Of a stretch of 64,000 bases of DNA, positions 3,205-24,844 are shown piece by piece. The notes beneath the pieces were generated by a model. That model was not told the DNA's origin and made no database searches. It was given only the letters and a program-made list of their open reading frames with translations. Within the stretch, counting starts at the first letter, position 1, and the number at the start of each line of letters is the position of its first letter. Source of the stretch: an uncultured archaeon (GTDB taxonomy: Archaea; Asgardarchaeota; Thorarchaeia; Thorarchaeales; Thorarchaeaceae); assembly GCA_964558645.1 (NCBI GenBank), contig CAZLEV010000002.1:96001-160000 (forward strand), written 5' to 3'. The position numbers were made by a program, and so were the translations under genes.

Positions 3205-3463
3205 CTTGTTCTCTCTCAGGTTTCTCCATATGCAATTTCAACTCATTGCCAAGTTCCTCCGACTGCGACTTCAGACAAGCCGCGGACACGATACCGATGA
3301 ATAGAGTCGAGAACACCACGAAGAGGACTAGGCCCCCGATGTTCGCGGAGGCCTCCGGGTATAGGTCAAGGGGGAGCATCGACGCGGTGGTCAGGACCAG
3401 CACGACGCGGAGCACAGCAATGAACCTGAAGAGGGCGACCTTCAGGCCACCATTCTCGGTCAT
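3134..3463 (-). CDS. Small membrane protein (2 predicted TM helices)
   Basis: Two hydrophobic stretches in 109 aa; GAGGTG SD upstream. Confidence 0.45.
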   Translation of the reverse strand: MTENGGLKVALFRFIAVLRVVLVLTTASMLPLDLYPEASANIGGLVLFVVFSTLFIGIVSAACLKSQSEELGNELKLHMEKPEREQDDRWSCRNSNGFAGHVRPARVTS

Positions 3464-3775
3464 GATTCACACACCTCTCATCGTACAATACGGTGTATCG
3501 GTATTGCTTGAATGTTCGGACAGAGAAAGCAGAGAGCGGATAGAGGTATTGGATGCCTTTAGCAGTGTAATTAGAGTTGCTTTATTTAAAAGAGGTAATT
3601 GACCCTTTGTTACCATTTTGGAGCAATATGGCGTGCTATTATTGGCGGCTACTGTATACTAGTGCACGGATTTCGCAATCTAGCTCCTCATTCTCAGGGG
3701 GCATCTCTATTGTCTTTAGTTGATGTTACCTCCAAAACGCCCTTCATCGAAACATCGATTGGGTTTGATAATCAG

Positions 3776-6613
3776 TTAGACGGATGGCGAAGGTGGCCAC
3801 CAGCGAGGGGCGTGCGTTTCAAAGGCCTCTGGTTGGACAATGCCACATCTCGCAAGAACACTCACGAATTCTCTTGAGTCAAGAAGCCCTGAGAGAGCCC
3901 AGACATATAGTAGAGCGAAAGTCGAAGCATCAAGGAGTGTCACACCTCTATCCTTTGCCACAGAATGAAGATTTCTATCGAAAGTAAGCCAACCTACAGT
4001 AATTCTGTGTGTTGACCGCCCTTGACATTTCTGGAGCGGGGAGAGCGCATCGGAATGACTTTCGATTGGCGTTCCGTCAGTCCTAGTCTTTGCTTCAAAA
4101 CAAAGCCTTACCTTACCTCCTGAGGAAACAAGGTATGCTTCCGGCCGAGGTATGTTGGCACCTGCGCCCCGATCACGTACCTGCTGCGATTCAAGCCCAG
4201 GCCAGAACTGCCCAAGCCCGGTAATTGCACTCCGGACTCCTTCTTCAAAAGCATCGGGCCCGTGTAGAAGCTTCTCTACGTTATCTGTGAATTTGCCCAT
4301 GTACTTCGCCAATAATCGGACGTACTCCGCTCTTCGTCTGGTCAAATCCTCGACTGACCAAAGGGCTCGAGCCTTGCAGTCATAGAACTCTCGCGAGCTC
4401 AGCCCAGTATCTCGAGGTGAAAAGTCCTCATAAGGATACTCTAGGAGATCTCTTACTGTCGATATATCCATCCTTCGAAGACTTTGAACAATCTTTCTTC
4501 CATTAACATCGCGCCGAAAGAGACGTATCAGGTCTGCGCTAGCGTGGTCCGACCCGATTTCTAGACTGTCACGAAGTCTCCTGAGGTGTGAAATCAAATG
4601 CCCACAACTGCCGACCTTCTCCGGACCGCATTTGTCAGCTATCGTCAAGTACTGCTGTAGCACTTCCACCGCACTAGGAACTAGCCGCTCAATGACTTCC
4701 TCGGGAGAATGGAACTGTCCTAGCTTGTCGCCTATATCCTTCAGTGACTCTTCCGAAATTGATGAGTCTAAGAGTGATGCACAGAAATACGCTTGTTGAC
4801 GGCGACGTGTTACTTGCACGGTCATTTCACGACCAGAGCTGTCCATATTGGCGATATATCGGCTATACTGCGATTCGTTCGATACTTCATGGCCGAAGAA
4901 GGAGCTGTCGAATCGGCTAGTCAAGCATAGATAGAAGAGGGCAGCCATCCGGTCAAACGCCTTTCCTCTGAAGACCTCCGACGACTCACCTAGGTTTCTA
5001 ATCAGAAGACAGGCATCGCTCGGTATCGCACCACTAGTGATGACCGCCCGCCCCAGGTCTGTACACTCATAGCGGGTTTCCGATTCGTTTCCATCTGAGG
5101 AGATGAACCCATATCTTGTGAGCGCATCAAGAGAATTCTTCAGAGTCAGTTCCGTTCTTCGGTCCATATCAGGGGGAGCAAAACTTCTGGAAAGAGTTAC
5201 CTCGAGTTGCGAGAGAGATCGCATCCCCTGCCAGATCCATGACAGGAGTGCTAACTGAGTTTCCGAAGCGTCGCGGAGAAGATAGGATTCGAGCCGTGGC
5301 TCTGTGTCCAGGATGTATTCGTCCAAAGAGGATTCCATATCCATGGTCGATTCTGTCAGAATCACGCTTTCGCCCTCTTCTTGGAGTCCAGATCGACCGG
5401 CACGTCCAGCCATATTCTTGTACTTGACTGATGATATTGAAGATTGGGCAACTCTGGTATCGTAGAAGTACACACGCGATGCAGGAAGATTGACCCCAAC
5501 GCCCAAGGTGGTTGTCGACACCAATACTATCAGTCGCCGTTGCCTGAACTCAGATTCAATCAAGGATCGGAGGGTCTTTCCAAGACCCGCATGGTGATAT
5601 GCAACTCCAGTTGAGAAGAGCTTGTGGAAGGTGCGGATAGTATTCTCTGATGAGTAGCGAATCTCGTCAAGCAGTTTATGTGAACGAATGATGTCTTCTT
5701 CGGGGAGTTCAATATCTTCAGACGCAATCCTGCCAGCTAGGTGTTTCGAGATGATCTGGGCAAGCCTTCGAGCATCCTTTCGCGTTGGTACAAAGATGAT
5801 AACCTGAGCGCGAATGTCAGTATCACTTTCCAAGTAGTCTAGCACCATGTACACGAGAACTGCATCCTTGTCCAAATCCGACTCGTACTCAAGCTCTTCA
5901 TGAGAGACCAGACTTCCATTCTCATAGAAGTCGATAGTGTGCGTGTCGGGGTCGAGAACTCCTTCACGAAGCGGCGTTGGCCTCCAATGAGACAAGACAG
6001 AGTGCTTTTCGCATTCAAGCCACTGCTCTATCTGGTCAGTGTTTGAAACCACGGAGCAGAGGGCCAGGATCGGAGGACGCTGTGGATTAGCAAGAAGCTG
6101 GGTAATGGCCGCCTCCTGACGAGCTCCTCGCCTGTGTTCTTCGATGAAGTGCAGTTCATCCACGACAACAAGATCTACACTCAGGACTCTCTCCAAACTT
6201 GTCCTCAGCATCAGCTGGAACAGCTCATATGTGAGGACCAGTACGTTGCTCTCCACCAACGGATCTCCATCTATCGCCTCGTCACCTGTCCATATGTTAA
6301 CCTGTCTGCCGAAAGATGTATTCTCGAGAAAGGAGAAGCGCTCCCCGATCTCTCTAGCCATAGCCTTGTACGGCACCAGATATAGAATCAGTCCGTGTAT
6401 ATTCTGGTACAGCTTCTTCATTATCGCTAGTTCAGCTACGAATGTCTTGCCGCTGCCGTGCGGTGCACTCACCAAGAAACTGTCCCACTCGAAATCCAAG
6501 AGACCCTTCTCTATTGCCTCAGCCTGCGCAGGCCAAATCTCATTAAGAGATCTCTCCTTTAGTATTTTCAAGTAACTACTAGGGAAGTACTTACTAAGTT
6601 CTGAAACGTTCAT
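3776..6613 (-). CDS. Ski2/Hel308-like SF2 helicase fused to a C-terminal Mrr-like PD-(D/E)XK nuclease
   Basis: Q motif WPAQAEA, Walker A APHGSGKT, DELH, HHAGL, TTTLGVGVNLPA, MAGRAGR. C-terminal RPEAYL...LCFEAKT...GVTLLD. Start set at ATG 6613 (MNVSEL, GGTGGTG SD) rather than 6733. Confidence 0.85.
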   Translation of the reverse strand: MNVSELSKYFPSSYLKILKERSLNEIWPAQAEAIEKGLLDFEWDSFLVSAPHGSGKTFVAELAIMKKLYQNIHGLILYLVPYKAMAREIGERFSFLENTSFGRQVNIWTGDEAIDGDPLVESNVLVLTYELFQLMLRTSLERVLSVDLVVVDELHFIEEHRRGARQEAAITQLLANPQRPPILALCSVVSNTDQIEQWLECEKHSVLSHWRPTPLREGVLDPDTHTIDFYENGSLVSHEELEYESDLDKDAVLVYMVLDYLESDTDIRAQVIIFVPTRKDARRLAQIISKHLAGRIASEDIELPEEDIIRSHKLLDEIRYSSENTIRTFHKLFSTGVAYHHAGLGKTLRSLIESEFRQRRLIVLVSTTTLGVGVNLPASRVYFYDTRVAQSSISSVKYKNMAGRAGRSGLQEEGESVILTESTMDMESSLDEYILDTEPRLESYLLRDASETQLALLSWIWQGMRSLSQLEVTLSRSFAPPDMDRRTELTLKNSLDALTRYGFISSDGNESETRYECTDLGRAVITSGAIPSDACLLIRNLGESSEVFRGKAFDRMAALFYLCLTSRFDSSFFGHEVSNESQYSRYIANMDSSGREMTVQVTRRRQQAYFCASLLDSSISEESLKDIGDKLGQFHSPEEVIERLVPSAVEVLQQYLTIADKCGPEKVGSCGHLISHLRRLRDSLEIGSDHASADLIRLFRRDVNGRKIVQSLRRMDISTVRDLLEYPYEDFSPRDTGLSSREFYDCKARALWSVEDLTRRRAEYVRLLAKYMGKFTDNVEKLLHGPDAFEEGVRSAITGLGQFWPGLESQQVRDRGAGANIPRPEAYLVSSGGKVRLCFEAKTRTDGTPIESHSDALSPLQKCQGRSTHRITVGWLTFDRNLHSVAKDRGVTLLDASTFALLYVWALSGLLDSREFVSVLARCGIVQPEAFETHAPRWWPPSPSV

Positions 6614-6905
6614 CCCAAACACCACCGATATGGGGCTATGCTCTTCCCGGATTTCAGTCTTTGCTCGCGAGTACCTCGAAGTGACTAAATGAGCTGAATC
6701 GGCCGTTGTCCTGATGTTAGCACAAGAAATCAATGCGGGACCTCCCCGATTTGAAAACCTTCGCCGCCTTTCTTGTTCCGTGCGTAAGAAGAGGCAATCC
6801 CACTAGATTAACCAAAAGAGATCATCATTGCGGCAAACCAGATGGCAGGCCTAAGTCGGCCTTGAAGCTCGATGCAATGAATTTGACAGTGTGCCATGCC
6901 AGATC

Positions 6906-8360
6906 CTATTTCCATGCACGCAATCCTTTGAGGTTTTCTAGGGCTAGGTTCTTTATATCATCAGCGAGTCCTCCACGCGATTTGACTCTGTCGTAGAAGT
7001 TCCTCTTGACCTCGTCTGATATCTTTGCGTCACGAACTGCGAGAATGAATTCCCTTGTTGTTCTATTCAGAGGGTTGGGGTTCTCGGCCAGTTTCTCGTA
7101 CGCCTCATTGGATAGACTATTCCCATCATACTCGCAGGCAAAGGAATAGAACTTCTCACCTAGGGCCGAAGAGGCAGGATAGTACTGCTTCGCGGCTGCG
7201 TTGATCCATCTGACCTTCTCTTCTTCGTCAAGACTGTCAAATGCAGTTCTTAGTAATCCCGCAATGTTAGACCGGTTCTTGTAAGTGCGATTGTCCCCAA
7301 CCGGCTGAGAGAATACAGCTTCGGGCTTGAAGAAGTTGTCCGGTGTGGGAATGAGAGTCAAATTCAGCTCGTCAAATTGACCCGTCATCTCGAACACAGC
7401 CATCAGATTCTCAAACCATCTCTTAAGGCGTTCACAGTTTTCCCCATTGGCCTTCTTGATGGTACACTCAGCAAAGGCACCTTGCCAAGCTGCGAGTAGT
7501 ACATGAGAGGTAGGGGAAACCCGTGACATGGCTTCTCTCATCTCATAGAGAAACCAATCGTACGTGTTGGAAAAGCGGCTCCATTGTCCTGCAGAGGCTA
7601 TCCGTTCTAAATCGCTTGCGGCATCTTTCAGCCGTTCGATGATATTCATTCGTGTTTCCTCCCCGATAGGCGACTCGGTGGGGTGCCAATTTTGCAGTGC
7701 GTCTTTAGCGTAGTCAACAAACGCTATCCGCTCTAGGCGTTGTGTGATTTCTCTTGCAGTTCCTCGCAAAGCTGTGTCGACAATGATCAGAGGCCCAATT
7801 AAAACTGCAAGGGCTAGTATGAGCCAACTGAGGCCTAACAAGTATTCCCACAGAGCAATACTCCAGAGAATGAACAGGATGCCGACACCTGCTCGGCGCT
7901 TGAGTTTCCAGAGCATTTTCTGAACGACCAACGAGTCCATTGCACCCTCGACTATATTGAGTGTGCTTTCAGAAGTAGCAGTCCATGTTGGTTTGTACCA
8001 GTTTGTGACAACCTGGTCTATTGTGGCTACCAGACATTGGAGATCACTGTTGCACTCACGACTGTCCTTCCAGAAGAGTAATGCATCTCGCTTTGAACCG
8101 TACTTGGCCACTCCTTCGATCCACTTGTCAGCTGCCTTGTCAACATTGCTGATGAACAACAGAGCTGTGATGAGTCCAGTGCCTCCACCCAGGATAAGCA
8201 AGGTACTCAACGTGGCAGTTAGGACATCGTCGATCCCCGTTTCAAATAGAGTTGGGAGTAAATCCAGCAACAACGGTGTCAGTAATGCTGTCAAAGAGAA
8301 ACCGATGGCAGTATAAAATCCAATGTGGTCCTCGGATGATAGCATCTGGTTCAGTGACAA
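6906..8360 (-). CDS. Hypothetical membrane protein (about 4 N-terminal TM helices plus a soluble helical C-terminal domain)
   Basis: 484 aa ORF with two pairs of hydrophobic segments; no family recognised. Confidence 0.6.
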   Translation of the reverse strand: MSLNQMLSSEDHIGFYTAIGFSLTALLTPLLLDLLPTLFETGIDDVLTATLSTLLILGGGTGLITALLFISNVDKAADKWIEGVAKYGSKRDALLFWKDSRECNSDLQCLVATIDQVVTNWYKPTWTATSESTLNIVEGAMDSLVVQKMLWKLKRRAGVGILFILWSIALWEYLLGLSWLILALAVLIGPLIIVDTALRGTAREITQRLERIAFVDYAKDALQNWHPTESPIGEETRMNIIERLKDAASDLERIASAGQWSRFSNTYDWFLYEMREAMSRVSPTSHVLLAAWQGAFAECTIKKANGENCERLKRWFENLMAVFEMTGQFDELNLTLIPTPDNFFKPEAVFSQPVGDNRTYKNRSNIAGLLRTAFDSLDEEEKVRWINAAAKQYYPASSALGEKFYSFACEYDGNSLSNEAYEKLAENPNPLNRTTREFILAVRDAKISDEVKRNFYDRVKSRGGLADDIKNLALENLKGLRAWK

Positions 8361-8499
8361 TTTCGCATTCCCCGTGGTCCATTGTCCACGTTTCTGTTCA
8401 CGTCTTTAGGGGAGTTAAGCCAATTATGGTTTTCCATCGGAAGAAGGAACGTCTATGGTGCTTCTTCTCGATTCCTATGGAGGGGTAGTTTCACTCACA

Positions 8500-9036
8500 T
8501 TAGTCTATATGAAGCTCTTCATATCTTCTCATCAGATACCCCAATATCTTGTCGAGGATGACACTGCTTTCCGAGAGAAGGTCCATCTGATCGGTATCCT
8601 TGTAGCCTTTCTCACCATGGACCAAGTTGCATCGGACTTTATACAGCCACATCAAAAGGGTTCTGATAGCCTCTCTTGATTCATCTGAACTGATTGCCTC
8701 CTTAAGCTTCTTTGTGATTGGCAGTCCAGAAGGAGGTCTAGGCCAATACTCCTCTCGATAAATAGGAAGCATATTCAAGTATCGATCTAGACAAGGCCGT
8801 AGCAAGGAAATCAGTTCATCTGGGTCTTCTACCAGATCAATGGTAGCAATTGCTCGTGTAGAATCCCCGCTCGATAGATCAGCTCCTGGATATTTCGTCT
8901 TCTTGTATAGATTGTATAGGATATTGTAGGCTATAAAGACCGAAATGTACCTATTGAAGGCATCGACCTCTTGCTTGGCCTTATGTTGCCATTCCCTTAC
9001 TTTTCCAAGAAACATCTCTCGTTTTTTGTTCTCCAT
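8500..9036 (-). CDS. Stand-alone HEPN-domain protein (ApeA-like)
   Basis: N-terminal RYISVFIAYNILY and C-terminal LYKVRCNLVHGEK (R-x4-H-G-x-K). Start set at ATG 9036 with GGAGTGG SD. Confidence 0.75.
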   Translation of the reverse strand: MENKKREMFLGKVREWQHKAKQEVDAFNRYISVFIAYNILYNLYKKTKYPGADLSSGDSTRAIATIDLVEDPDELISLLRPCLDRYLNMLPIYREEYWPRPPSGLPITKKLKEAISSDESREAIRTLLMWLYKVRCNLVHGEKGYKDTDQMDLLSESSVILDKILGYLMRRYEELHID

Positions 9037-9385
9037 CTGAAATCCACTCCCCTGATATTGCCCACTTGGCGGACGTTGATACATCGTAACAGTATCCCGA
9101 CTTATAAAAGTGCCTTGCTGGCAATCATTGATTATCACATAATACGGCACCTACCCAATTCCCACCATGATAAAACTCAATGCCCGTGAAGCATCCGAAA
9201 CTAGGACCTACACAAACTATCTCAGGATTTTATTGAGAGTGGAGAAGTGAGTAGATTAGCCGGTTCGACCGGATTCAAAGCCAGAGAGGCAAGGGAAATT
9301 GCCGATTGTGACTTCAAGCAGCAGGGAGAAGACTATCCGCGATAGAATAATACGTTCCCGTGTTATCTACTCATAGGCATTTCAA

Positions 9386-10225
9386 TTGAGGCTAACCACT
9401 AGACAGAGAAAGATGATTGAGAATCTTGAAAGAGGGGCAATAGTATGCCGAACTGGATTGCTCTCTAATCCCCTAGTTGGAAAACAGTCGAATTCTCTCG
9501 CGGATTCCATTATCTGTTTCGTTCACAACTATGCCCATGAACGACAGGGCGCCGCCCAAGGATACCGAACACTAGCGGCCCTCTCCGTTGAGAGGGAGAT
9601 TCCGCGGTCGTCCAGATACATCAAACCGTCGGATGTGAGAAGAGTTTGGGAAGTCTACAAGGAACTGGCTGGGAAGTACTTCCCCGATCTCTCACTCAAC
9701 CCCACGAACAATCCTATCAATGAAGACAAGGGTGTCCTGAGTGTTCTGTGTGAAGACAAGACTCCAAACCTTTACGGTCGTGTTACGAATCTTCTGACCC
9801 GCGGCGAAGCGAAAGCAGCGCATGATTTCATTAAACAGATTCGAGGTGTGGGAAACAAGATTGCCGCATTCTATCTTAGAGATATCGTATGCATTGAGAA
9901 AATCCCTGAAGATGAATTAGACACCATACACCTCATACAGCCTGTTGACACGTGGGTCCGACAAGCATATTCCGTGGTTATGGGAAAGAATCTGCCCCAA
10001 GACCAGATTGAAGCGATGAAGGATGTTGCAGATTTGTGCAAAGCAGCACAGTGTTCCCACGTAGAGTTCAATCAGGGAGCATGGGCCTGCGGTAGTCTGC
10101 TCGGCAAGGACATCTACCACCTACGGAGAATAGCAGAAGGATTTGATGACCGGATTCGAGAAAGCTTTGAAGAGGTAAAAAATCTCGCGAAAGGCATGGC
10201 AAAATACTTCGATACAGAGACCTAG
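9386..10225 (+). CDS. HhH-GPD superfamily DNA glycosylase/AP lyase (island-encoded)
   Basis: HhH motif IRGVGNKIAAFYLRD with the lyase Lys, and PVDTWV with the catalytic Asp. Confidence 0.75.
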   Translation: MRLTTRQRKMIENLERGAIVCRTGLLSNPLVGKQSNSLADSIICFVHNYAHERQGAAQGYRTLAALSVEREIPRSSRYIKPSDVRRVWEVYKELAGKYFPDLSLNPTNNPINEDKGVLSVLCEDKTPNLYGRVTNLLTRGEAKAAHDFIKQIRGVGNKIAAFYLRDIVCIEKIPEDELDTIHLIQPVDTWVRQAYSVVMGKNLPQDQIEAMKDVADLCKAAQCSHVEFNQGAWACGSLLGKDIYHLRRIAEGFDDRIRESFEEVKNLAKGMAKYFDTET

Positions 10226-10407
10226 AAATCCCGTCTACGTCGGTATTGACACGCCTAATCAGAAACCCGTTTGATATGGTGTCCACATCCGGTTATCTGT
10301 CCATCGGCATAGTCCTCATCCGGAGCGTAGCTCCAACCTCCATGAGGAACAGACATATCTGTCAAAGTCTACATCTGTGATTAACCGAGAGTTGGGGGTT
10401 CATCTGA

Positions 10408-11499
10408 ATGATCTCTACCCTTTTCTATAGGCCAGAGAGAAGAATCGAGGATATGCTAACCCATTGGTTTCTTGCCTTTCTTGACCGATTAGCTGAACAT
10501 CAATCCCCTGCTTGTAGGGATTTGTTCGAAGAACTGGGGTTCAAGCTCGGAGATAATTGGAAGAAGGATTTCAGAGTTGAAAGCCAAGTCAATATTGGAG
10601 AGGGGCGAAGAATCGATGGACTGATCACTGGTCAGAAATATGTTATCGGGTTTGAAAACAAGATAGATGACAAGCACAAAATGAGCCAGATTCGAGAGTA
10701 CTACAAACTACTCCATGAGAAACATGAGCAAGATTGTGCACTCCTGCTGACGTTCGACTGGAATACTCAAACAAGAAATGAGGTAGAAAAACTGATTCGA
10801 GCGGGAGAGGTCCCCGAAAAGGATGTGAGACTTGCGACTTGGCAAGACGTCCACCAAATTCTCATAGATATTGCAGAGAAAAGCCGCGGCACCGGGTTTG
10901 CCTCATTCCTGTGCCGTGAAATGGCCCGGGTATTGGAGAAAATGAAGATGAAATCATACACTGGAATCAACAAAGAACAGATAAAATCCTATTTTGATGT
11001 AAAGCAGAATCTTTCGGTGCTAGACCAACTAATTAGAGAATCGGTGAAGGCTAAGTTTGACTGGTTATTGGAAGGGAGCGGTTCGGATGGTAGTCTTACA
11101 AGAAAGAGAATCACATTTCCTTTCAGAAAGGGCGAGAAGAGCACGTTTCTTTTCTTTAGGTTGGGTGAGGACTCCCTTCACATTGGCGTTCGATGCCCTA
11201 GGCGGAGTACAGATCTCGAACGACTCAAGGAGAGATTGGATTATCGGTCCCTTCTGAACATACTAGAGAAGTCGAAGGAGTATGAGGTGTATGGTTTCGC
11301 GCCCGCATTGGACAAATCACATGGATATGAGGAGATTAGGCAGTTGGATGGCAAACCGAAACTGCATGATCGGCTCCAAGTTTCGAAAGAAGTGCGCCTC
11401 GAAGAAATGAGTAGAAAAGATTTCAAGGACCACATAAAAGACGAGATAGACTCATTGGAAGGTCTAGTCGTTTTTCTCCATCAAACACTCGTAGAATAG
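10408..11499 (+). CDS. PD-(D/E)XK nuclease superfamily protein (PDDEXK_4-like N-terminus)
   Basis: EDMLTHWF...VESQV...RRIDGLI...VIGFENKI...QIREY...TWQDV pattern. Confidence 0.8.
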   Translation: MISTLFYRPERRIEDMLTHWFLAFLDRLAEHQSPACRDLFEELGFKLGDNWKKDFRVESQVNIGEGRRIDGLITGQKYVIGFENKIDDKHKMSQIREYYKLLHEKHEQDCALLLTFDWNTQTRNEVEKLIRAGEVPEKDVRLATWQDVHQILIDIAEKSRGTGFASFLCREMARVLEKMKMKSYTGINKEQIKSYFDVKQNLSVLDQLIRESVKAKFDWLLEGSGSDGSLTRKRITFPFRKGEKSTFLFFRLGEDSLHIGVRCPRRSTDLERLKERLDYRSLLNILEKSKEYEVYGFAPALDKSHGYEEIRQLDGKPKLHDRLQVSKEVRLEEMSRKDFKDHIKDEIDSLEGLVVFLHQTLVE

Positions 11500-12233
11500 A
11501 CAAACTAGGTCCAGACAGTCTAATGGTGAGCATACAGCTCAATCGTGAGCTGCACACCCTCCAGCCCCACTAAGTGCGACTGAATACCTCGAGAACAGTT
11601 CGCAGAATACTCTGCTCACCGTCGAGCCAATCGGCAATCCATCGGAGCGCCATCGCCGAATCTGTTTCCGAAGTCCAAATCCTGAAGCGAGCCTTGGCTT
11701 TGCCCAGGCCCAAGCGGCGCAGATGACTGCGTACTCCATAATTGACAACAATATTTCTAGAACGAATGCTGGAGTTATGTTAACTACAACCACTGTTCAT
11801 TTCTCGAGCCGCGTGCATGGTCAACAGAGGACTTGTAGCCGCTGCATCATCCCATCCATCATGGTAAGGATTCATTCGTAGAGCCACGATAAAAGAGCTA
11901 CTTGTACGTACTCTTCTACCAGGAGGTCTGGGACATCCATGTCCCAATGAAAAGGACTGGGCTAGCAACCTTTGCTCTGTTCTAGCTCGGGAGAAGAAGC
12001 AACACCGAAAATCTCCTTGATAGAGTTGTTGGAAAACGTGGAGCGCAACTGTATTTGTCAACTATGTTTTCGTTTCCGTGGAATAGTCGATTGTGTGACT
12101 AGGAAAGAAGCGTCCAAGATAGGTCCTGCTTCTATTCATTGACTCTAGAGGAGTTTCTATGCGAAAAGGATTTGAATGATGGCATAGACTAGCCGGTGAG
12201 ATTCCACCGAAGTAGTGAGGGATAGACTATTGA

Positions 12234-13283
12234 CGGCAAGAGGCCAAAAAGCTGCTAAGAGAGATTCTAGAGGATTCCGACGATGAGTCGGTATCAACAA
12301 GTAGTCTTCTCAGAATGGCCTTGAGAGCAGCCGAGCTGCTTGACCCAGAAAGCGATGAGCATGTTTGGATAGCGCTGGAACTCCAAGGCTATCCTCAAGG
12401 AGGTCTACTGAAAGAAGAAGACACTGTTCCGCCGAAATATCGAACCCCACTGTACAGGTGGGCCGATCTCTTGGCAAGTGGTCCAGAACCAAGAATAACC
12501 TACAGCCCGCCCGATTCAGACCTTCTAGAAAGGATACACCGGGCAAATGATGTCAGATCCATCACATTCTTAGTAAGTGAACCAATCGAGGTTCTTGAAG
12601 AGGCAAATACTCCTGTTTTTCGTTCGGATTCCATTGTTCAAGATGATGGTTTCAATAAGACAATCGTAACTTGGGTTGCGACCATGCCCGTGTATCGCAT
12701 GCAGAGTATCGTCAAGGCAGTCAGGTCACGAGTCCACGCTTTCGCACTCACAAAGCTCGTTTCTATCGAGTTCGGAGAAGCGACAAAGCATTTGCTTGAG
12801 GGAAGCAGAGTGTATGTTGCAGAGAAAATGGAAATCCTCAGCCCAGATTTGCTAAGGGAATTGCTTGAAACATTGGAGAAACAAGAGAGTGGAAGAACTG
12901 ACATCAACTCCAGAATAGTGGTTCAGAACTGCCTGACTTTCGTTCAGAGGATAACAGATATACTACTACGCGACAGCATGATTCCCGAGAGTGAATCAAG
13001 ACCCTCAACCGGCCAAACCCGAAACAAACTAAGCCTAATTCTTGCTTGGGCCAAAAAGAATAGTACCAAAAAGCTTGATGAAGAAAGAGAGTTGGTGAAA
13101 AGGACCTTCAATCACTTCTTCTTCTACTCGAAATCTCTTCAGAAAACAATCGATAAACAACGCCACAAGGATCCGATTCTCGTTAGCAAGGATGAAGTGG
13201 ACAGAATCCTCGTCTACCTCCTGACTTGGCTTGCCGACCTACTCAGAATATTAGACCACGCAAACTATGAATGGGAATCCTAG
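12234..13283 (+). CDS. AbiTii-domain protein (abortive-infection associated); 5' end apparently disrupted
   Basis: LLRMALRAAELL...WIALELQGY...VPPKYR matches the AbiTii N-terminal pattern. The frame is open from 12234 (RQEAKKLLREILEDS...), upstream of the first ATG at 12315. Confidence 0.7.
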   Translation, partial: RQEAKKLLREILEDSDDESVSTSSLLRMALRAAELLDPESDEHVWIALELQGYPQGGLLKEEDTVPPKYRTPLYRWADLLASGPEPRITYSPPDSDLLERIHRANDVRSITFLVSEPIEVLEEANTPVFRSDSIVQDDGFNKTIVTWVATMPVYRMQSIVKAVRSRVHAFALTKLVSIEFGEATKHLLEGSRVYVAEKMEILSPDLLRELLETLEKQESGRTDINSRIVVQNCLTFVQRITDILLRDSMIPESESRPSTGQTRNKLSLILAWAKKNSTKKLDEERELVKRTFNHFFFYSKSLQKTIDKQRHKDPILVSKDEVDRILVYLLTWLADLLRILDHANYEWES

Positions 13284-13542
13284 TAGACCTGCAACTGCTA
13301 AGTGAGATGCATGGCAACCAAATCTCTCAATCACGAAGCATACTCTGAAGAGGTATTCACCCGGGCTTTCTCATCGTCCGTTTGTAGTGCACAATCGACT
13401 CATAGACGCATTTCCCGCTCTATCACCCTGTTTGGGGTCTATGTTCCCTTACATTCCCCATCTGGATTCAGACCCGAAGTCGACAGGATGTCGTGAAACC
13501 AAGTTGAGTCCTTTCTTCCGCTTGATCTACACTCCAAAAGAA

Positions 13543-15015
13543 TCACATGTAGAATCTATAGCTTGTTCTTGGCTCTGTTCGAGTTTCCGATTCGGACAAA
13601 AGACCACCAACTGTTCTTGAGAAGCTCAGAGTTATTGGCTCCTTGAGGCAATAGGCGGCCGAGTTCCAGTTCATCTTTGTTAGTCCGAGGATATCTTCGC
13701 ATAGTGCTTGGTTAGGAGAATCTCCGACGTGCTGCAGTAGAGACAAAGGGCGAGGTGTAGAAGGGCCCCAATACTGTCCCATAAACGGCACATATCCCTT
13801 CGTGTAGAGATGTAATCGATTATCGGTCGTAACCGAGTAGGTTCCTCGAATCGGTGGATGATCACCTGCCCTTAGCAGGCGAAAGCCGGATCCTCCAACT
13901 GCAACTAGATCGGATTGCTCAACACTATCTAGAGCAGATAGAACTCCATCGGATTCCTCCTCGCTGAACTTGGAGCTCTTGTGAATGACTACCTTGTGAG
14001 GAGGATGTCCCTCCTGCCGCCTATATGTGTCCAAGACCTGTTCAAGAAGCCTCTTGGCACTCCCCCTCTTCAGGTGTGGTTGGCGATCAGACTCCTCCTT
14101 TCTTGCCTTGCCGCCCTTTAGCACTAAGCCCTCACCACGGTGAGAGAATACCTGAGCAACACTGGTCTTGAGATCTAGATTCGTCTTTGACTCATAGAAA
14201 GAGATGCCGACAAAACACGTTCCGATGGAGGCATTGGCCAGCCGCCACGGATGACCACCAGCCTTGTAACAAAACGCAACAGCCAGATTCCAAGCAACTG
14301 TACACATATCCTGAACATTTGTTCCTAGGAGCGTCGACGGTCTGATAACCTGAGTCGGAATGCCCAATTGCATTCCCTTGGACTTGATCACTCTCCACAT
14401 GGAGCTGAAATGAATCTCTTCAGCCTCCTCTGTCATTACCTCCTCAAGTGCTTCATACTCATCATGAGGGTCAGTCCTGACTTTCCGGCGTTTCTTGGCA
14501 ATTGGCCGGCCGAACCTATCCCAATATTTCGTACATTCTTCTTCGAACTCGGGAGGTAATGCGACGACTACAATCTGAGGTTTCGGCTCCCTTTCAGAGA
14601 AATTCTGCAATTTCTGCTCCAGACAGCCATATGCGAATCTTACTTTCCCGTCGAAGTCCTTCTTTTCACTCAGCTGCTTCAATTCCTTGGCCGTGATTAT
14701 CTGGCAATCGGTCGTACTACATTCGATAGAAAAACCAAGCGGCGAATCCATCGATAGACCCGGGAAGTCTGGCATGAAGCCTTTTGACGGAGGAGACCAA
14801 ATAGGACGCGCAAGTCGTCCTATCAGATTGAGTAGCAAGTCACTTGTTCTCTTGGAGCCAATGACCCCTAGAGAAATGCGCATGGGTATTTCGGTGCCAC
14901 GGGGTAGAATAGGACCAAACAAGCTCAGGCCCGTTCTCTGGTCGATACACCGGTTTCCTCCGCCAAAGAGAAGCTCAACATCGGGAACAATCCCGACTTC
15001 GCTAATTCCAGACAT
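13543..15015 (-). CDS. ago: Short prokaryotic Argonaute (MID-PIWI only, catalytically inactive)
   Basis: ELLFGGG..ID...GLSLFGP N-terminus; MID pocket WRVIK...GIPTQVI...NLAVAFCYKAGGHPW; PIWI TCFVGISFY / VVIHKSS (catalytic Asp residues lost), PPIRGT, ILGLTKMNWN, EPITL; C-terminal YRFYM. Start set at ATG 15015, overlapping the upstream stop. Confidence 0.95.
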   Translation of the reverse strand: MSGISEVGIVPDVELLFGGGNRCIDQRTGLSLFGPILPRGTEIPMRISLGVIGSKRTSDLLLNLIGRLARPIWSPPSKGFMPDFPGLSMDSPLGFSIECSTTDCQIITAKELKQLSEKKDFDGKVRFAYGCLEQKLQNFSEREPKPQIVVVALPPEFEEECTKYWDRFGRPIAKKRRKVRTDPHDEYEALEEVMTEEAEEIHFSSMWRVIKSKGMQLGIPTQVIRPSTLLGTNVQDMCTVAWNLAVAFCYKAGGHPWRLANASIGTCFVGISFYESKTNLDLKTSVAQVFSHRGEGLVLKGGKARKEESDRQPHLKRGSAKRLLEQVLDTYRRQEGHPPHKVVIHKSSKFSEEESDGVLSALDSVEQSDLVAVGGSGFRLLRAGDHPPIRGTYSVTTDNRLHLYTKGYVPFMGQYWGPSTPRPLSLLQHVGDSPNQALCEDILGLTKMNWNSAAYCLKEPITLSFSRTVGGLLSESETRTEPRTSYRFYM

Positions 15016-16540
15016 CGTCTTCTTCCTCCCCGCAACCAAATTCCTGTTCCGTGATTTGATGGTCGTCTACGTCAAAGCTGTATTCTTCGAGCGTTGGCTG
15101 CCTTGCATGATATAGATTACAGACCGGACGTCTGATACGCTCCGAAAGGCGTTTCTGAAAATCTTCAGGAATGCCGAAGCCGACTTGGCAGTCTACAGGA
15201 CTAGCATCGATTTGAATTGGAGGGCCCCCTGTGGCTATTTCCAGAGTGGGTTTTCCCCCTGAAACCAGATTCATCCAAAACATGAGGTCGAATAGAAGGC
15301 GTCTGTTACCGTGTCGAGCCCAAGCTCCGGATGACAACTTCGTCATCAGTCTTGCCTTTACACGATTCTGTCCATCTGTCGTGAAGTAGAATCCGGGCTG
15401 CAGCATTAGGTAGTACTCGTCACCCATCTGCATAAACCGCAGCGAAATCCCCTGATGTTTCCAGAAGGATTTCTTCTCCTTCGTAAGCACCCGTGTTATT
15501 CGTCGCGTTCCAGGCTTCCACTCACAATAGCACTCAAGTCCGTCATCAGACGGAAAGAAGAACATCGGTCGCCCCGACCTACTTCGTTTCCACATTCCAA
15601 GGGACTTAAGATGAGAGTATGCTGATTCATTCAGTAAGTGAGTGAGCCATCTCTTCTTCTCAGAAGTGTCGAAGACCTCGGTAATTGGTTTGAGCCAGAC
15701 CGTATTGTCCGATTTCGCCTCGGCCAATGGGTTTTCAGTTTTGTTCAAATCAGAGAAGGTTAGTATTCTTCGTTCCCGCAAAATGAAAGGGTCAGGTCGC
15801 TCACCTATATCCTCCAGCAAGTCCCTGGCCCATCTGTAGTCAGTTCTGGCAGCATAGATAGACGTGGGAAATTCTAGCACACCATAGAGGTTTGTTACAA
15901 GTGTTTCTTGAAGGGAGGGTATTTCGCCCATTCCAGATAGTGCATCTGCAATCTGCTTTGCCGGAAGAACCAAGCGGGAAAGGGTACTCTGGACAAGCCT
16001 ATTGTCTGACTGAATGAACCGGTCTATTGTCAGAATATCCCCGCAATACACTTCGGATCTTGAAATGAATGACTTCAGGACATCAATATCCAGACCGGAG
16101 AGAGCTTCTGCAGCGGCCTTGTCTTCGCTCCTTGTATTCTTCTGAAGCACTTCTACCGCTCTTCCAAGCAAACCAAGTGCCTCATCCCAGTCGTAGTTCT
16201 CGAATACCTTCTCAAGGAGTTCGTGGTTTGAGAAGGACCGAGCGAAGTATATGAAGCGGAATCGATCTTCAGGCAGGAGCTTGGAGAACTTGAACAGTTG
16301 ACGTCCGAATGGAAGGAGGAAAGTTTCTGAGAAGGGTGAAACTCGCGTATTCTTGCATTCGACTAGGACCTTAGTGTCCTGTCTATCTAGGAAGATGATA
16401 TCTTCGTATGACCCTTCTATCGGGGATTCTACTATCTTAAGAAGCCCTTTCTGTTCCAAGAAACGAGAAACAGCATGGCGGTATTGTTCACCACTGTAAT
16501 GTTGCGCTTCCCGTCCCTTTCCCAGAGTGTAGAAGCCCAA
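15002..16540 (-). CDS. Mrr-like PD-(D/E)XK nuclease-APAZ fusion, effector partner of the short pAgo
   Basis: N-terminal GEQYRHAV...YEDIIF...VLVECKN. C-terminal half ETLVTNLY..LEFPTSIY...WKHQGISLRF...YYLMLQPGFYFTTDG...NRRLLFDLMFW is APAZ-like. Directly upstream of and overlapping ago; TTG start with GGAGGG SD. Confidence 0.85.
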   Translation of the reverse strand: MGFYTLGKGREAQHYSGEQYRHAVSRFLEQKGLLKIVESPIEGSYEDIIFLDRQDTKVLVECKNTRVSPFSETFLLPFGRQLFKFSKLLPEDRFRFIYFARSFSNHELLEKVFENYDWDEALGLLGRAVEVLQKNTRSEDKAAAEALSGLDIDVLKSFISRSEVYCGDILTIDRFIQSDNRLVQSTLSRLVLPAKQIADALSGMGEIPSLQETLVTNLYGVLEFPTSIYAARTDYRWARDLLEDIGERPDPFILRERRILTFSDLNKTENPLAEAKSDNTVWLKPITEVFDTSEKKRWLTHLLNESAYSHLKSLGMWKRSRSGRPMFFFPSDDGLECYCEWKPGTRRITRVLTKEKKSFWKHQGISLRFMQMGDEYYLMLQPGFYFTTDGQNRVKARLMTKLSSGAWARHGNRRLLFDLMFWMNLVSGGKPTLEIATGGPPIQIDASPVDCQVGFGIPEDFQKRLSERIRRPVCNLYHARQPTLEEYSFDVDDHQITEQEFGCGEEEDDVWN

Positions 16541-16639
16541 TTCGTTACAACCCTCCGAGAGGAACAGATGGGGCCATGACTATATGAAGGTATGCCAAAG
16601 AGAGGCAGTTTCTAGAACATGCGCAACGTTCAATGCCCA

Positions 16640-17230
16640 TCACCCTTCCCGCTCGCGCCGAAGCTCCTTCTGCAAGGACATTTCATCGAGCTCTCTCATT
16701 CCCTGGTTGTATTCCTCGGTCAGCTCGAACTCGGGAATCAAATAGTGCCATCTTACTAGTTTGCCATCCTCAGTTGTGAAGAAATCGGCTACATGGCCCT
16801 CGACCATTGGTACAGACTTCGCTTCAACTCCTCTTGCCCTGAGCGTTTCCAGAAGGTTCGTTGTTCTTATCGTTCCAAGATCATCTTCGGTTTCTTGCTC
16901 TCTGAGTATTCTTATGATCTCCTTCTCGATCTCAGGCAGTTGCTTCAGTTCTTCAGACTCTTCCTGTGTGAGCTTCCGGCAGAACCAGATGAGCGGTCCA
17001 ACCTCTACGCCTCTCTCATTGTGGCGATAGTCAATGGTCTGGTCGATGAGCCAATTGTCCAAGGCATGCCGGATAGCCTGATTTGCCAGATTATTGTCGT
17101 CTAAGTCACTCTCGGCACGAATCCTATCAGTCAGAGCTTGTTTCAAGTCCTCAAGAGGTAGTCCTCGTTTGTCGCATGAATCCAACAAATCCATGAGATT
17201 CGCCACAGCTCTATCCAACATCTTACTCAC
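16640..17230 (-). CDS. Winged-helix-like hypothetical protein (last gene of the backbone operon)
   Basis: 196 aa; GTGA overlap with the upstream gene; paralog at 2482..3204. Confidence 0.75.
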   Translation of the reverse strand: MSKMLDRAVANLMDLLDSCDKRGLPLEDLKQALTDRIRAESDLDDNNLANQAIRHALDNWLIDQTIDYRHNERGVEVGPLIWFCRKLTQEESEELKQLPEIEKEIIRILREQETEDDLGTIRTTNLLETLRARGVEAKSVPMVEGHVADFFTTEDGKLVRWHYLIPEFELTEEYNQGMRELDEMSLQKELRREREG

Positions 17231-20200
17231 GAATAGATTCCTCCCTTCTGGATTTTAACTCCTCGTCTAATCAGCTCCGCCCTTATCTGCGACACCTGCT
17301 CGTGTCTCTCTTCCAAGTAACCACTAAGTAGCCTTCTCTTCCTGACATCATTGGGAGGAGCAATGAGAGCCAGCCTGATCATATCGTCGATAGTTCTAGT
17401 GCGAGCATACCATGAAATCGATACCCTATCGCTCTTGCGCATGAGTCTAAGAGTGCCTGGAGAAATGGCCACCTTGACCCCCAGTGTGGCGGCGATGTCT
17501 TGCATGTTCTTTACCAGTCTGTTCGGATTCTGCATGATTTTCTCTGCGATGCTTAGAGCAAGCCTACTAGTGACCCTGTCCGCGGACTTGGCAAGTCTAT
17601 CGATATCACCCCATTCTAGGCTCCAGCATTTTCTCCTCGGTTTTCCAAACTCTTTGATGAGTGCTACCTCCTCGTTGTCGAGGATTGGCTCGAAGTCGTA
17701 GGCCTCCCTCTTGTTCCCTGCATTCAGAGCATTGGAGAATGTCCAAGAGATTGCCCTCGGCAACACCGTGCCATCCTGTGGAATCGAGTCCTCGATGATT
17801 GCGCAGAGAGCCTCCCAAGACTCCCGGAACAGTGAGAGGTCTATCTCCGGATTGTGAATCGTCTTGTCGCCTGTGGGTAGACCAAGTTCCTGTAGTACCC
17901 GTCCAATCACGGCAGGAAGATGAGCGATGTAGCAATTATGGTCTTTCCGCCACTGAGGGTCGAGAAAGACTTCACCTAGCCTCTGTACGGTCCGTTCAAA
18001 GATCTCGATCCGCGCGATTTCAGGCTCATGGTAAGCTACCGCAGCGGTCTTCTTCAGACTCCCATCGCAGACTATCGTCGCGATTACCCTTGCCCAGATC
18101 ACCAACAGGTCCTCTCTAGAGGGAAACTTCGGATTGGGGATACCACCCATCCCATTCTCTGTTGTGATCTTTGAAATCTCGCCCTCAAGATCGCGGATCG
18201 ACCGATTCGATACACTAAGAAGAAACTCAAGATGGTCACCGCGGATTCGCATCTTGGTGATGTTGACTCGCGGGACCTTGTGCGGACCGAATACATCGTC
18301 CATGAGACGCTCGAGTCTCTCAGCAGTGCTCCGCAACTCGCCGCCTCTGTTTCCGGTAAGAGCCTCCTTGACATCCGCGAGCAACGACGCAAAGGAATTG
18401 ATATCGTTGAAGTAGAAGAACTGGTCATGGTACATATGGAGCAGGCTCATCCGATCGGGATTCAGCTCGAACTCGAGAACCTCCCGTTCACTGATTCTGC
18501 GGATATATCGCTCGGTGTTCTCAAGCCTTCCCTCTAGGGGAAGTCTCAGTTTTCTTTGCCGATACCACTCCTCGAGAATGCGCTCCTCCTCCTGTCGCCG
18601 TAGGTCAGAGATGTCACGTGGTTCCGTATCTCGCAGCCACTGACTGATTGTTGTGTCGGACACCTCGTACTTCAGTGCCAAGTCCTTTTGTAGGGTCTCC
18701 GGTTCGGCTAGCACACTGAAGTACTTCTCGCACAGCTCGTAGTCGACCTTCTTTTCCCGCCCGTGTCTGGCCGCCAGTTTCCGTACATCGCCTGTTGACT
18801 CGATACAGACCTCAGGCGGCCCACCATTGGCCCCTACGTACAACCGTTTCAGCTCCAGTCGATGAAGTTCGCTCAGGAAACTAGGGACTTCCTCTTCTCT
18901 TGCCCATCTACGTATCTTCCTCACAGCTATGTTGTGCTCCTCTGCGAATCCCTTTTGATTGACCTTGCCCTGTTCCAGGGACAACTTCAGTTTGAAGAAC
19001 ACGCGCACGTCATTATCTCGATCATCGAAATCCAGTCGAAATCTGAGATGCTGATGCCGTGCAAGGGACTCCTCGTACTGCCGCTCTGTGACAATGATAC
19101 AACGCTTGTCCCAAGAAAGATTCTCAACTGACTCAAGAGGATTCTCTCTCACACCTGCGCCAGAGTTGCCAGAGAGATTGTTGAGCTGACCTAAGAGAAT
19201 CTCTGCCCAACGCCGTTCCACCTCCAAGTTCCAGATGTCCTTCACAAGCTCGGGTGCGTTGGCGTCGTCTGCGAGTTTCTCGAGATTCTCTCTGTCAATC
19301 CCGAGCTCCTCGGACAGCTCATCAAGGCCTTCGGGGTCTTCCAAGTTCTCAAGCGCCTCTCTCACCCGTATGAAAGTCTCTGCATCCCGAATCTTCTCAT
19401 CTTGGTCATCGTCGTCAATCGACTCTCTGTGCATCTTGAGATGCTTCTCTAGGTCTTCTGTCTTCATGGAATCCTTGATTGCATTCCGTATCTGTTCCTT
19501 CTCCTCTTCGGAAAGTTTGTCAAACTCCTCCTTAAGCACCCTCCTGAGGCGTTCCTCTCGCGTTTCGGGGAACATCGACGGCCACACAGGGTCGCCGTCA
19601 GGAAACATAGTTGAGCGTCCTCCGAATCGAGTAGTGTGTTCATTGTGGGTGTTTCTTCTATCCCTGTTAGCCTCGTCCTCGTCGACTGCATCCTCTCTCT
19701 CCGATGTGTTCTCAGTGGGAGCCTCTTCCCTCTCCTCAGTGGCATTCTCGCATTCCGCTACATCAGTCCCAACATCAGGTTCAGGTGATTCTGCCTGCGT
19801 GGCATCATCCCTCGAGTTCTTCTCGGGCTCCATTCCCTCAGGAACTTCCATGCCTTGGGGATTCGGGGTTTGCTTCTCCTTAGACCCCATATCCTCTTCA
19901 ACGGTTCTGATATCGTCTTCCTCGGCCTTCTCCGGTGCTTCCTCCGAAGTGTCTCGTTCTTTCGACCTTTTGTCTCCCTCACTCTCTTCGGATACCTCGC
20001 TCGATATTTCTTCGGAAACCTCTTCACTTGTCTTCTCCTCAGTACCAATCTCTGAATCCTCAGTCTGCAAACGCTTCTCAGTAGCCTCCTCCGGATCTGC
20101 GGTGCTCTCAACCTCCATGGTGACTGTGACCTGCTGGCTCCCCGCATTCTCCTCCACATGGTCTTCATTCCGCTCCGATTGATCAGTGTCTGATTGCTCG

Positions 20201-20640
20201 GGGGTCTCTTCAGGCTCGGCATGAATCCGGCCCTCCCCCTCGTCTGACTCGAGTTTTTCCTTCATTTCTGACCTGTACTGCTCCTGGAGTTGTTCGGAGG
20301 TGTCCTTTATCTGAGAGGCCCTCTCAGATGGTGATTCGCCAGTGTTGTCACCGACATCATCCACCTCGGCTGCGCCACTATTCCCCACATTCTCTTCTTG
20401 CTCCAGTTCCTCCCTGAACTTGCGGACCCGCGCATCAACATCAACTCGTTCCAGTTCCTCCCTGAATTCACGCATCCGTGACTCAAGCTCTTCTTCGGCC
20501 TCGATTTCTCCTCTAAACTCCCTCATCTGATTCTCAACATCGAGCCGATTCTCCCGTATATCCTCAGTATCAGAGTGTTCTTCGTTAGCCTCATTCTTAT
20601 GATACTCCTTGCCTTGCCCGGGGTTGTCGACCACAGCCAC
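17227..20640 (-). CDS. Large protein: acidic disordered N-terminus, about three HTH-like repeats, C-terminal LAGLIDADG-like domain pair
   Basis: About 350 aa E/D/S/T-rich N-terminus. HTH-like LSEELGIDRENL, FAEEHNIAVRKIRRW and LALKYEVSDTTISQWL. LAGLIDADG-like ARVIATIVCDGSL and AIIEDSIPQDGTV. Start probably GTG at 20640 or 20634, just after the ATPase stop. Confidence 0.7.
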   Translation of the reverse strand: MAVVDNPGQGKEYHKNEANEEHSDTEDIRENRLDVENQMREFRGEIEAEEELESRMREFREELERVDVDARVRKFREELEQEENVGNSGAAEVDDVGDNTGESPSERASQIKDTSEQLQEQYRSEMKEKLESDEGEGRIHAEPEETPEQSDTDQSERNEDHVEENAGSQQVTVTMEVESTADPEEATEKRLQTEDSEIGTEEKTSEEVSEEISSEVSEESEGDKRSKERDTSEEAPEKAEEDDIRTVEEDMGSKEKQTPNPQGMEVPEGMEPEKNSRDDATQAESPEPDVGTDVAECENATEEREEAPTENTSEREDAVDEDEANRDRRNTHNEHTTRFGGRSTMFPDGDPVWPSMFPETREERLRRVLKEEFDKLSEEEKEQIRNAIKDSMKTEDLEKHLKMHRESIDDDDQDEKIRDAETFIRVREALENLEDPEGLDELSEELGIDRENLEKLADDANAPELVKDIWNLEVERRWAEILLGQLNNLSGNSGAGVRENPLESVENLSWDKRCIIVTERQYEESLARHQHLRFRLDFDDRDNDVRVFFKLKLSLEQGKVNQKGFAEEHNIAVRKIRRWAREEEVPSFLSELHRLELKRLYVGANGGPPEVCIESTGDVRKLAARHGREKKVDYELCEKYFSVLAEPETLQKDLALKYEVSDTTISQWLRDTEPRDISDLRRQEEERILEEWYRQRKLRLPLEGRLENTERYIRRISEREVLEFELNPDRMSLLHMYHDQFFYFNDINSFASLLADVKEALTGNRGGELRSTAERLERLMDDVFGPHKVPRVNITKMRIRGDHLEFLLSVSNRSIRDLEGEISKITTENGMGGIPNPKFPSREDLLVIWARVIATIVCDGSLKKTAAVAYHEPEIARIEIFERTVQRLGEVFLDPQWRKDHNCYIAHLPAVIGRVLQELGLPTGDKTIHNPEIDLSLFRESWEALCAIIEDSIPQDGTVLPRAISWTFSNALNAGNKREAYDFEPILDNEEVALIKEFGKPRRKCWSLEWGDIDRLAKSADRVTSRLALSIAEKIMQNPNRLVKNMQDIAATLGVKVAISPGTLRLMRKSDRVSISWYARTRTIDDMIRLALIAPPNDVRKRRLLSGYLEERHEQVSQIRAELIRRGVKIQKGGIYS

Positions 20641-20647
20641 GACCCCA

Positions 20648-24721: not shown

Positions 24722-24844
24722 GTTTCGAGTCTGCGAGGATTTATCTTATAGATGCTTCGCTGTGAGCCCCCGCTGTCCTACATTCCTCGTTTCTGTTGTC
24801 CTGAATCACAATAGTTAACTCCGACCGGTGTATAGCTCAATGCC

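Follow-up and report, generated by a model that had tools for sequence, protein, structure and literature searches.

A short Argonaute paired with a PD-(D/E)xK nuclease-APAZ protein in a Thorarchaeota genome, a candidate guide-triggered defence system

We analysed a stretch of 64,000 nucleotides (nt) from an uncultured archaeon of the Thorarchaeaceae (assembly GCA_964558645.1, contig CAZLEV010000002.1, positions 96,001 to 160,000 of the forward strand), referred to below as the window. It contains two overlapping genes encoding a short prokaryotic Argonaute (pAgo, or Ago for the protein itself) and a partner protein in which a predicted nuclease domain precedes an APAZ domain. We put at about 70% the probability that the two proteins form a short-Argonaute defence system, in which a guide triggers a nuclease that is activated by oligomerization and then cleaves DNA indiscriminately; the analysis as a whole points to a guide-triggered nuclease as the most reasonable mechanism. 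What was observed comprises the gene pair, its domain folds, the catalytic and pocket residues, the synteny and the predicted interface; for the type of guide, the type of target, oligomerization and collateral cutting we argue from homology with SPARDA and SPARHA. On sequence comparison, the pair belongs to a branch, already catalogued by PADLOC, among systems of the SPARDA/SPARHA type. An initial interpretation of the same DNA, made from its letters and open reading frames (the sequence-only reading), had proposed an operon of a short pAgo and an APAZ-fused effector, and the profile matches, the gene overlap and the conserved gene order all agree with that proposal.

The smaller protein had been described as a MID-PIWI Argonaute of about 490 amino acids (aa), which fits its match to the PADLOC profile pAgo_I (1.4e-130; reported span 17–498, profile of 455 positions) and its end-to-end alignment with short pAgos, namely SPARDA Agos of 482–485 aa and SPARTA Agos of 507 aa. 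The closest Agos of solved structure are those of the SPARDA systems of Novosphingopyxis, Xanthobacter and Enhydrobacter, at about 35–40% identity (full-length matches to 9qbp_B and 9qbl_B at 5e-62 and to 9jsb at 3e-58), followed by those of SPARHA (1.4e-57), SPARTA (about 1e-44) and SPARSA (3.5e-25). The corresponding bit scores are 213 and 201 for SPARDA, 199 for SPARHA, 155 for SPARTA and 92 for SPARSA. On similarity alone, the Ago therefore groups with the nuclease-bearing S2B short pAgos and can be called S2B-like; the clade-S2-like placement proposed earlier holds in this sense, with SPARDA and SPARHA scoring above SPARTA and SPARSA.

As had been noted, the Ago contains the motifs GISF (at residue 270) and IHKSS (at residue 344), which place S272 and K346 in the columns that we take to be the catalytic Asp positions of active Agos. 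S272 is common to 54 of 60 short pAgos and K346 to all 60, and SPARDA Agos have both. Judging from these residues, the protein is an Ago that has lost the catalytic DEDX tetrad and is predicted not to cut. In the MID pocket, all 60 short pAgos share K211, Q222 and K251. The pocket reads W-R-V-I-K at Ago residues 207–211 (window 14383–14397), and its first residue, four positions ahead of K211, is W, where the seven closest relatives have Y and the other sampled Agos R (39) or H (11); SPARDA carries R at this position, unlike the W of this Ago and the Y of its closest relatives. Long and eukaryotic Agos typically have a Y-K-Q-K pocket. A long charged insert in MID, claimed in the sequence-only reading, was not borne out: between the conserved P154 and K211 this Ago has 58 aa, fewer than the median of 65.5 aa for the 52 other short pAgos compared, and the stretch aligns with its SPARDA counterpart.

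The C-terminal half of the partner had been read as APAZ-like, and both profile and structure comparisons agree. PADLOC profiles for APAZ (PNTD1-PNTD2) from several effector classes match residues 207–464, the best being Aga_REase-PNTD1-PNTD2 (2.5e-30). Among solved structures, phmmer retrieves the HNH-APAZ chain of SPARHA from Acidithiobacillus caldus (9om4_A, 1.5e-15 over residues 211–499), which is the closest APAZ by sequence, and three DREN-APAZ chains of SPARDA (1e-6 to 1e-3) only over residues ~348–470; the sequence likeness of the partner to solved structures is limited to its APAZ half. The sequence-only reading had named the lack of an APAZ fold as a reason to give it up, and Foldseek finds the fold: the domain superposes on SPARHA 9om4_A with a template modelling score (TMt) of 0.79 and a root-mean-square deviation of 4.2 Å, on NbaSPARDA (9vx1) with 0.82–0.83 and on XauSPARDA (9qbl, 9qcc) with 0.74–0.76, and it matches SPARTA chains at E-values of about 1e-17. 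Beyond APAZ, the partner ends in a tail with a net charge of -10 over the final 25 residues. Acidity of the tail is found family-wide, with a median net charge of -5 and 45 of 86 members at -5 or more negative. The acidic C-terminal tail of SPARDA is auto-inhibitory and fills the duplex groove in the apo form (bioRxiv 10.1101/2025.04.08.647717).

Modelled alone, the nuclease domain reached a predicted local distance difference test (pLDDT) score of 89 and shows its elements in the order alpha-beta-beta-beta-alpha-beta, followed by helices up to residue 205; the AlphaFold2 model of the full-length partner, built from 86 family members, has a mean pLDDT of 85. The core comprises a helix at residues 10–30 (with E11), strands at 34–38, 48–51 (after D47) and 57–67 (with E61-x-K63), a helix at 72–86 and a strand at 95–103. 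The E..D..ECK motif reported earlier is present, and in alignments of 73–86 members E11, D47 and K63 are invariant, while S39, E61 (conserved in at least 90% of relatives), F94 and F158 are nearly so. By its predicted fold and the conserved D47, E61 and K63, the N-terminal domain of the partner is a PD-(D/E)xK nuclease.

Structure searches with this domain returned mostly PD-(D/E)xK nucleases among the matches with Z of at least 5, and the top seven are all of this kind. The values include 9.1 for the N-terminal nuclease of Avs3 (177 residues), 8.0 for Cap4 (144 residues), 7.9 for AF1548, 7.5 for Hachiman HamA, 7.3 for NucS and 7.1 for the cleavage domain of FokI; because Z values of 7–9 are common for PD-(D/E)xK cores, as the search tool itself warns, the modelled domain reads as a PD-(D/E)xK fold of a Cap4/Mrr-like kind, with no family membership implied. 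Foldseek places NucS and Lamassu LmuA at 5e-4. The earlier label "Mrr-type" is compatible with the E...D...ExK motif and with the fold; as a family name it is weak. The partner gave no match to Mrr_cat (PF04471) at E-values up to 1, faint Mrr_cat hits were obtained in 3 of 73 relatives (best 0.006), and the nearest Atlas language-model feature cluster, to be taken as a lead only, is 99% Mrr_cat (score 0.93, 156 shared features). Between the nuclease core and APAZ, the sequence-only reading had seen an extra helical segment of about 130 aa. The segment is closer to 100 aa (residues 106–205) and is not an addition: it is kept across the family, with F158 nearly invariant, and it is covered by the structural alignments with Avs3 (5–205) and Cap4 (9–189), so we regard it as part of the effector domain.

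The association of the two proteins is conserved. Five metagenomic contigs with the nearest relatives of the Ago or of the partner (L001, L002, L081, L084 and L097), one of them from a Thorarchaeota assembly, show the two genes overlapping in this order, and an Ago frame lies directly downstream of the nuclease domain in 11 of 11 other Asgard genomes with a hit. A tree of 60 short pAgos places the Ago in an eight-member clade with a Shimodaira-Hasegawa-like approximate likelihood ratio (SH-aLRT) support of 100, in which all identified partners belong to the nuclease-APAZ family. Its sister group (SH-aLRT 94) is a pair of Agos, one of which has an identified partner, also of the nuclease-APAZ family. 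The partner found in a neighbouring clade (L099) has no Pfam match, and a profile-profile comparison detected no relation between it and the N-terminal family studied here (probability 0.5%).

Multimer modelling, which had been proposed as a check, supports an Ago-APAZ heterodimer. The complex of the Ago with APAZ residues 205–512 scored an interface ipSAE of 0.82 in three runs, with the best control at 0.01. Solved complexes attained this ipSAE mark in 58 of 80 cases and mismatched pairs in 2 of 110; since complexes of SPARTA, SPARDA and SPARHA have already been solved, the value is a sign of likeness to them and no independent proof. The runs share at least 66% of contacts, the pLDDT of the partner is at least 77, and the predicted interface with the Ago involves partner residues 205–220, 356–416 and 449–466.

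The effector belongs to a family already present in a catalogue. The PADLOC profile Aga_REase_Archaea (PDLC02417) matches the partner at 9e-19 over residues 38–411 (profile positions 11–350 of 416) and is the only PADLOC profile that also spans its N-terminal domain. All 10 relatives scanned, which had been found via the N-terminal profile, match it as well, with E-values down to 7e-99. The partner scores 66 bits, against 245–330 bits for typical members, and by these matches it is a divergent member of the already catalogued Aga_REase_Archaea family. The description "uncharacterised system" in the sequence-only reading thus applies at the bench, but the system is not unknown, as the existing profile shows. 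A word-index search retrieved only two full-length relatives of the partner, at 38–39% identity. When a profile of the first 212 residues was used to search 1.84 billion proteins exhaustively, 127 cluster representatives were obtained, about a third of them shorter fragments. The domain begins at or near residue 1 in nearly all of these, and full-length representatives are mostly 460–520 aa, so that the domain forms the N-terminus of APAZ-sized proteins in the full-length representatives. Agos of the small subclade to which this one belongs are 45–55% identical to it.

The nuclease-APAZ system is sporadic in its distribution. A search of 400 Asgard genomes detected the protein family in 12, and no copy came up in 85 other genomes from the taxonomic family of the host, two of which are congeners. 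An alignment-based search of genome contigs for related loci returned no relative.

We propose the following course of events for the reading favoured here. In its conserved K-Q-K pocket, the Ago would bind a small guide with a 5' phosphate, which by analogy is probably RNA, and it would join the APAZ half of its 512-aa partner in a heterodimer. At rest, the nuclease domain would be off, with the acidic C-terminal tail probably lying in the nucleic-acid groove. Pairing of the guide with complementary invader DNA would cause heterodimers to build higher-order oligomers, which would bring nuclease domains together and lead to indiscriminate DNA cleavage; the cell would then die or arrest, and the plasmid or virus would be stopped. 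A role in defence is suggested by the best fold matches of the nuclease domain (Avs3, Cap4, LmuA and HamA), which are defence nucleases activated by oligomerization, and by the setting of the operon in an inserted block of defence-like genes.

Several points weigh against this reading. Besides the commonplace Z values, the Pfam scan finds no Piwi domain in the Ago, whose close homologues carry weak precomputed Piwi hits, and gives no family of any kind, nuclease families included, in the partner at E-values up to 1; NCBIfam returned no useful hit for either protein. The presence of W207 in place of Y, R or H may mean that the 5' end of the guide is recognized differently. The complex score perhaps reflects memory of the solved SPARTA, SPARDA and SPARHA complexes. 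No characterization of the effector family was found in the literature searched, where queries on "SPARMA" or Mrr-APAZ also returned nothing relevant. Finally, a relative whose Ago is 47% identical (L083) has its partner gene split into three open reading frames of 206, 146 and 143 aa (L083:7496-9062), which indicates that such systems do decay.

The pocket residues also bear on a bolder version of the proposal, which we consider rather unlikely: that the Asgard-borne subclade is mechanistically distinct, with a Cap4/Mrr-like nuclease that has its own helical lobe and would assemble in a geometry different from DREN tetramers and HNH filaments, and with another class of guide, for example 5'-phosphorylated DNA or a guide with a different 5' nucleotide. 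The thought of a different guide class comes from the Y/W-K-Q-K pocket, unlike the R/H pockets of the SPARDA-like Agos sampled. If this were true, the pair would represent a new programmable collateral nuclease and a data point on Asgard archaea as a source of S2B systems.

The fold matches of the nuclease domain admit a milder activity, in which the Ago locates the invader and cleavage by the PD-(D/E)xK domain tethered to it stays confined to the bound target or to DNA close by, so that the cell survives. Site- or structure-directed enzymes do appear among them, including NucS/EndoMS, the FokI cleavage domain and type II enzymes. We consider such a split programmable nuclease unlikely, as all APAZ systems studied in depth (SPARTA, SPARSA, SPARDA and SPARHA) act indiscriminately once triggered and the top fold matches, Avs3, Cap4 and LmuA, are non-specific effectors. 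The SMEK domain, moreover, is not detectably the same as the domain found here: Pfam gave no SMEK_N match in the partner, NCBIfam gave neither a nuclease nor a SMEK match in the partner and eight relatives scanned, and the score of 0.87 to an Atlas SMEK_N cluster is a lead only.

The patchy distribution can be read in another way, with the operon as carried cargo that no longer defends the cell, either as a remnant in decay or as a module for addiction or competition that benefits the surrounding 13.4-kb block and not the host. The insertion is absent from a genome of the same genus (G001), the family was not found in the 85 other genomes of the host family, and one relative has a fragmented partner gene, all of which would suit this view. 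Set against this, both frames are intact, all conserved catalytic, pocket and interface residues are kept, and a copy at least 99% identical is present in the sample of a second study; patchiness suits defence equally well. Defence genes are typically sporadic and island-borne. Taken together, we judge the loss of a defensive role to be distinctly improbable. Slightly less probable again is an effector that mainly degrades RNA, or an Ago that senses RNA targets, leading to dormancy through transcript loss, given that DNases make up the overwhelming majority of PD-(D/E)xK domains of the kinds found in Cap4, Avs, Lamassu and restriction enzymes and that the closest Agos (SPARDA and SPARHA) sense DNA targets, even though the Y/W-type pocket resembles the Y-K-Q-K pocket and SPARDA, named for DNase/RNase activity, cuts both RNA and DNA in vitro (PMC12205087).

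Comparison with known systems places the gene pair close to SPARDA without making it a member. Common to both are the non-catalytic Ago residues, the APAZ fold, the acidic C-terminal tail and an effector of the PD-(D/E)xK superfamily. By sequence, the effector of the pair is nonetheless of another family, with matches to the DREN-APAZ sequences reaching only APAZ residues 348–470, and its host, unlike that of SPARDA, is archaeal. DREN (DUF4365) has been described as Hjc-like; the SPARDA DREN chains lie outside the top 50 structural matches of our nuclease domain, which is no evidence that the folds differ. The earlier epithet "SPARDA-like" is therefore apt for a short pAgo with a nuclease-APAZ partner and an Ago nearest to SPARDA and SPARHA, but not in the sense of membership, as DREN-bearing chains match only in APAZ. 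SPARHA, which is a filament-activated collateral nuclease (PMC12738770), provides the closest APAZ and an Ago at 199 bits, but its effector is an HNH nuclease, whereas the one described here is of the PD-(D/E)xK type.

Other known systems are alike in architecture or in fold. Aga_REase_Archaea with a class I pAgo has the same two-gene architecture, of which the copy in the window is a divergent example, and Mrr-like (SMEK)-APAZ systems of S2B follow the same plan, with a restriction-type nuclease fused to APAZ beside a short pAgo. Cap4, Avs3 and LmuA, all oligomerization-activated nucleases, are the best fold matches of the N-terminal domain, helical lobe included, at Z values of middling size; no relation was detected at the sequence level. 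Their activity is under the control of cyclic nucleotides, STAND ATPases or SMC-like proteins, not of an Argonaute. Among archaea, SiAgo of Sulfolobus islandicus is a non-cutting Ago that causes abortive infection via partner proteins (PMC11788926). SiAgo is classed as a pseudo-short pAgo, separate from the known short pAgos, and uses Aga1 and the membrane effector Aga2, in contrast to the canonical APAZ fusion and soluble nuclease found here. The kind seen here falls within the diversity of S2B systems described since 2018–2023, in which restriction-type nuclease effectors are listed, and surveys of Asgard Argonautes have reported many subclades, some near or within short pAgos.

SPARDA and SPARHA are recent discoveries and are under development as programmable DNA sensors. 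The archaeal restriction-like effector family is in the PADLOC catalogue, and the copy in the window is an intact, well-modelled Asgard representative that offers clear catalytic residues, a model of the heterodimer interface and a defined genomic insertion. The conceptual gain is small unless guide preference or activation geometry differs: the system is a good candidate for biochemistry and no conceptual surprise. Being a sporadic short pAgo of the bacterial-type S2B kind, it has no direct bearing on the origin of eukaryotic Argonautes.

Both open reading frames are intact on the minus strand (15002–16540 and 13543–15039), and the main features are given in Table 1. The TTG at 16540 is the earliest possible start of the partner gene, and the N-termini of homologues line up with partner residue 1. 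The gene sizes of 512 and 490 aa and the overlap reported earlier were reproduced, with the ATG at 15015 lying ahead of the upstream stop codon. A GGAGG (15029–15025) precedes the ATG of the Ago gene, and a GGAGGG (16556–16551) stands 10 nt ahead of the TTG of the partner gene. The same upstream spacer contains the AT-rich TTCATATAG at 16588–16580, a putative promoter element. Contigs from another, independent study of marine sediment contain the whole stretch at no less than 99% identity, so it is not an artefact of a single assembly. Among the public runs searched for this DNA, no RNA runs were listed.

Table 1. Position of the gene pair, its domains and the surrounding block in the window
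Feature	Coordinates	Strand	Details or basis
Nuclease-APAZ partner gene	15002..16540	-	512 aa, TTG start, stop 15004-15002
PD-(D/E)xK nuclease core, partner residues 1-105	16226..16540	-	Model, conserved residues and fold matches
Helical lobe and linker, partner residues 106-205	15926..16225	-	Helices 106-160 and 169-205
APAZ domain, partner residues ~206-483	15092..15925	-	PADLOC, phmmer, Foldseek
Disordered acidic C-terminal tail, partner residues 484-512	15005..15091	-	pLDDT < 50
Short pAgo gene (MID-PIWI)	13543..15015	-	490 aa from ATG 15015; frame open from TTG 15039
Overlap of partner and Ago genes	15002..15015	-	14 nt, read from sequence
Spacer upstream of partner gene	16541..16639	-	99 nt, read from sequence
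Variable block holding the operon	3205..16639	.	13.4 kb, between paralogues 2482-3204 and 16640-17230

An Asgard host had been suggested, and the window agrees with this. It encodes archaeal RLI/ABCE1, PriL and an FBP aldolase/phosphatase, and the RLI is 92–96% identical to that of two metagenome-assembled genomes, one of them labelled Thorarchaeota, and 71–79% identical to that of about 50 further ones, most of them with the same label; the host is thus assigned to Thorarchaeota.

The block that holds the operon is bracketed by two paralogous small genes, both on the minus strand, which share 63% aa identity and have no family match. The orthologues of both genes are adjacent in the same-genus genome G001, with a 4-nt overlap, and the block is absent. 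Window positions 24824–16640 are collinear with G001 at 88% nt identity, and the collinearity ends exactly at the stop codon of the bracketing 196-aa gene (16640–17230). These two observations define window 3205–16639 as a 13.4-kb insertion that separates two tandem paralogues. Its ends were searched for direct and inverted terminal repeats, and none were found. The junction just past the stop at 16640 also differs in a relative at 90–95% identity from a microbial-mat run. The 196-aa gene was considered as a third component of the system and rejected: its 63% identical paralogue lies at 2482–3204, both occur in G001 without the operon, and it is not beside the operon in L001, L002, L081 or L084.

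The sequence-only reading had placed the operon in a tRNA-anchored island, a view that we do not retain. The only tRNA in the window, Leu(CAG) at 24592–24681, lies 8 kb from the insertion, no direct repeat of it was detected within 1–30 kb, and the genes next to it are shared with G001, which has no operon. By the tRNA, a tight minus-strand module (16640–24190; 88% nt identity in G001) comprises a HerA-like ATPase of 1180 aa, a protein of 1161 aa and the 196-aa gene. The 1161-aa protein has a very acidic N-terminal third and weak helix-turn-helix and homing-endonuclease-like hits; no integrase was seen in this module.

Other genes of the inserted block resemble defence genes. A 985-aa helicase that matches Hachiman HamB profiles (3.6e-45) follows a 484-aa gene of no family match at 3776–8360 on the minus strand, and the two may be a Hachiman-like pair with an unrecognized HamA. 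The same block encodes a PDDEXK_4/PDC-S26-like nuclease (10408–11499, plus strand) and a weakly AbiTii-like protein (12315–13283, plus strand); with HamB-, PDC-S26- and AbiTii-like genes in one block, several defence-like genes travel together. Among the relatives, the operon with the split partner gene (L083) adjoins a cluster of E2-CBASS, JAB and ThiF genes (ubiquitin-like conjugation) and an HD-domain gene. On the closest long contig (L081:1-19497, Ago 53% identical), the operon is near a SNF2-NOV_C helicase, an SLFN_AlbA_2 protein, two large genes of no assigned family, ThiF and two GH3 genes, a neighbourhood that shares no genes with that of the window and is defence-island-like.

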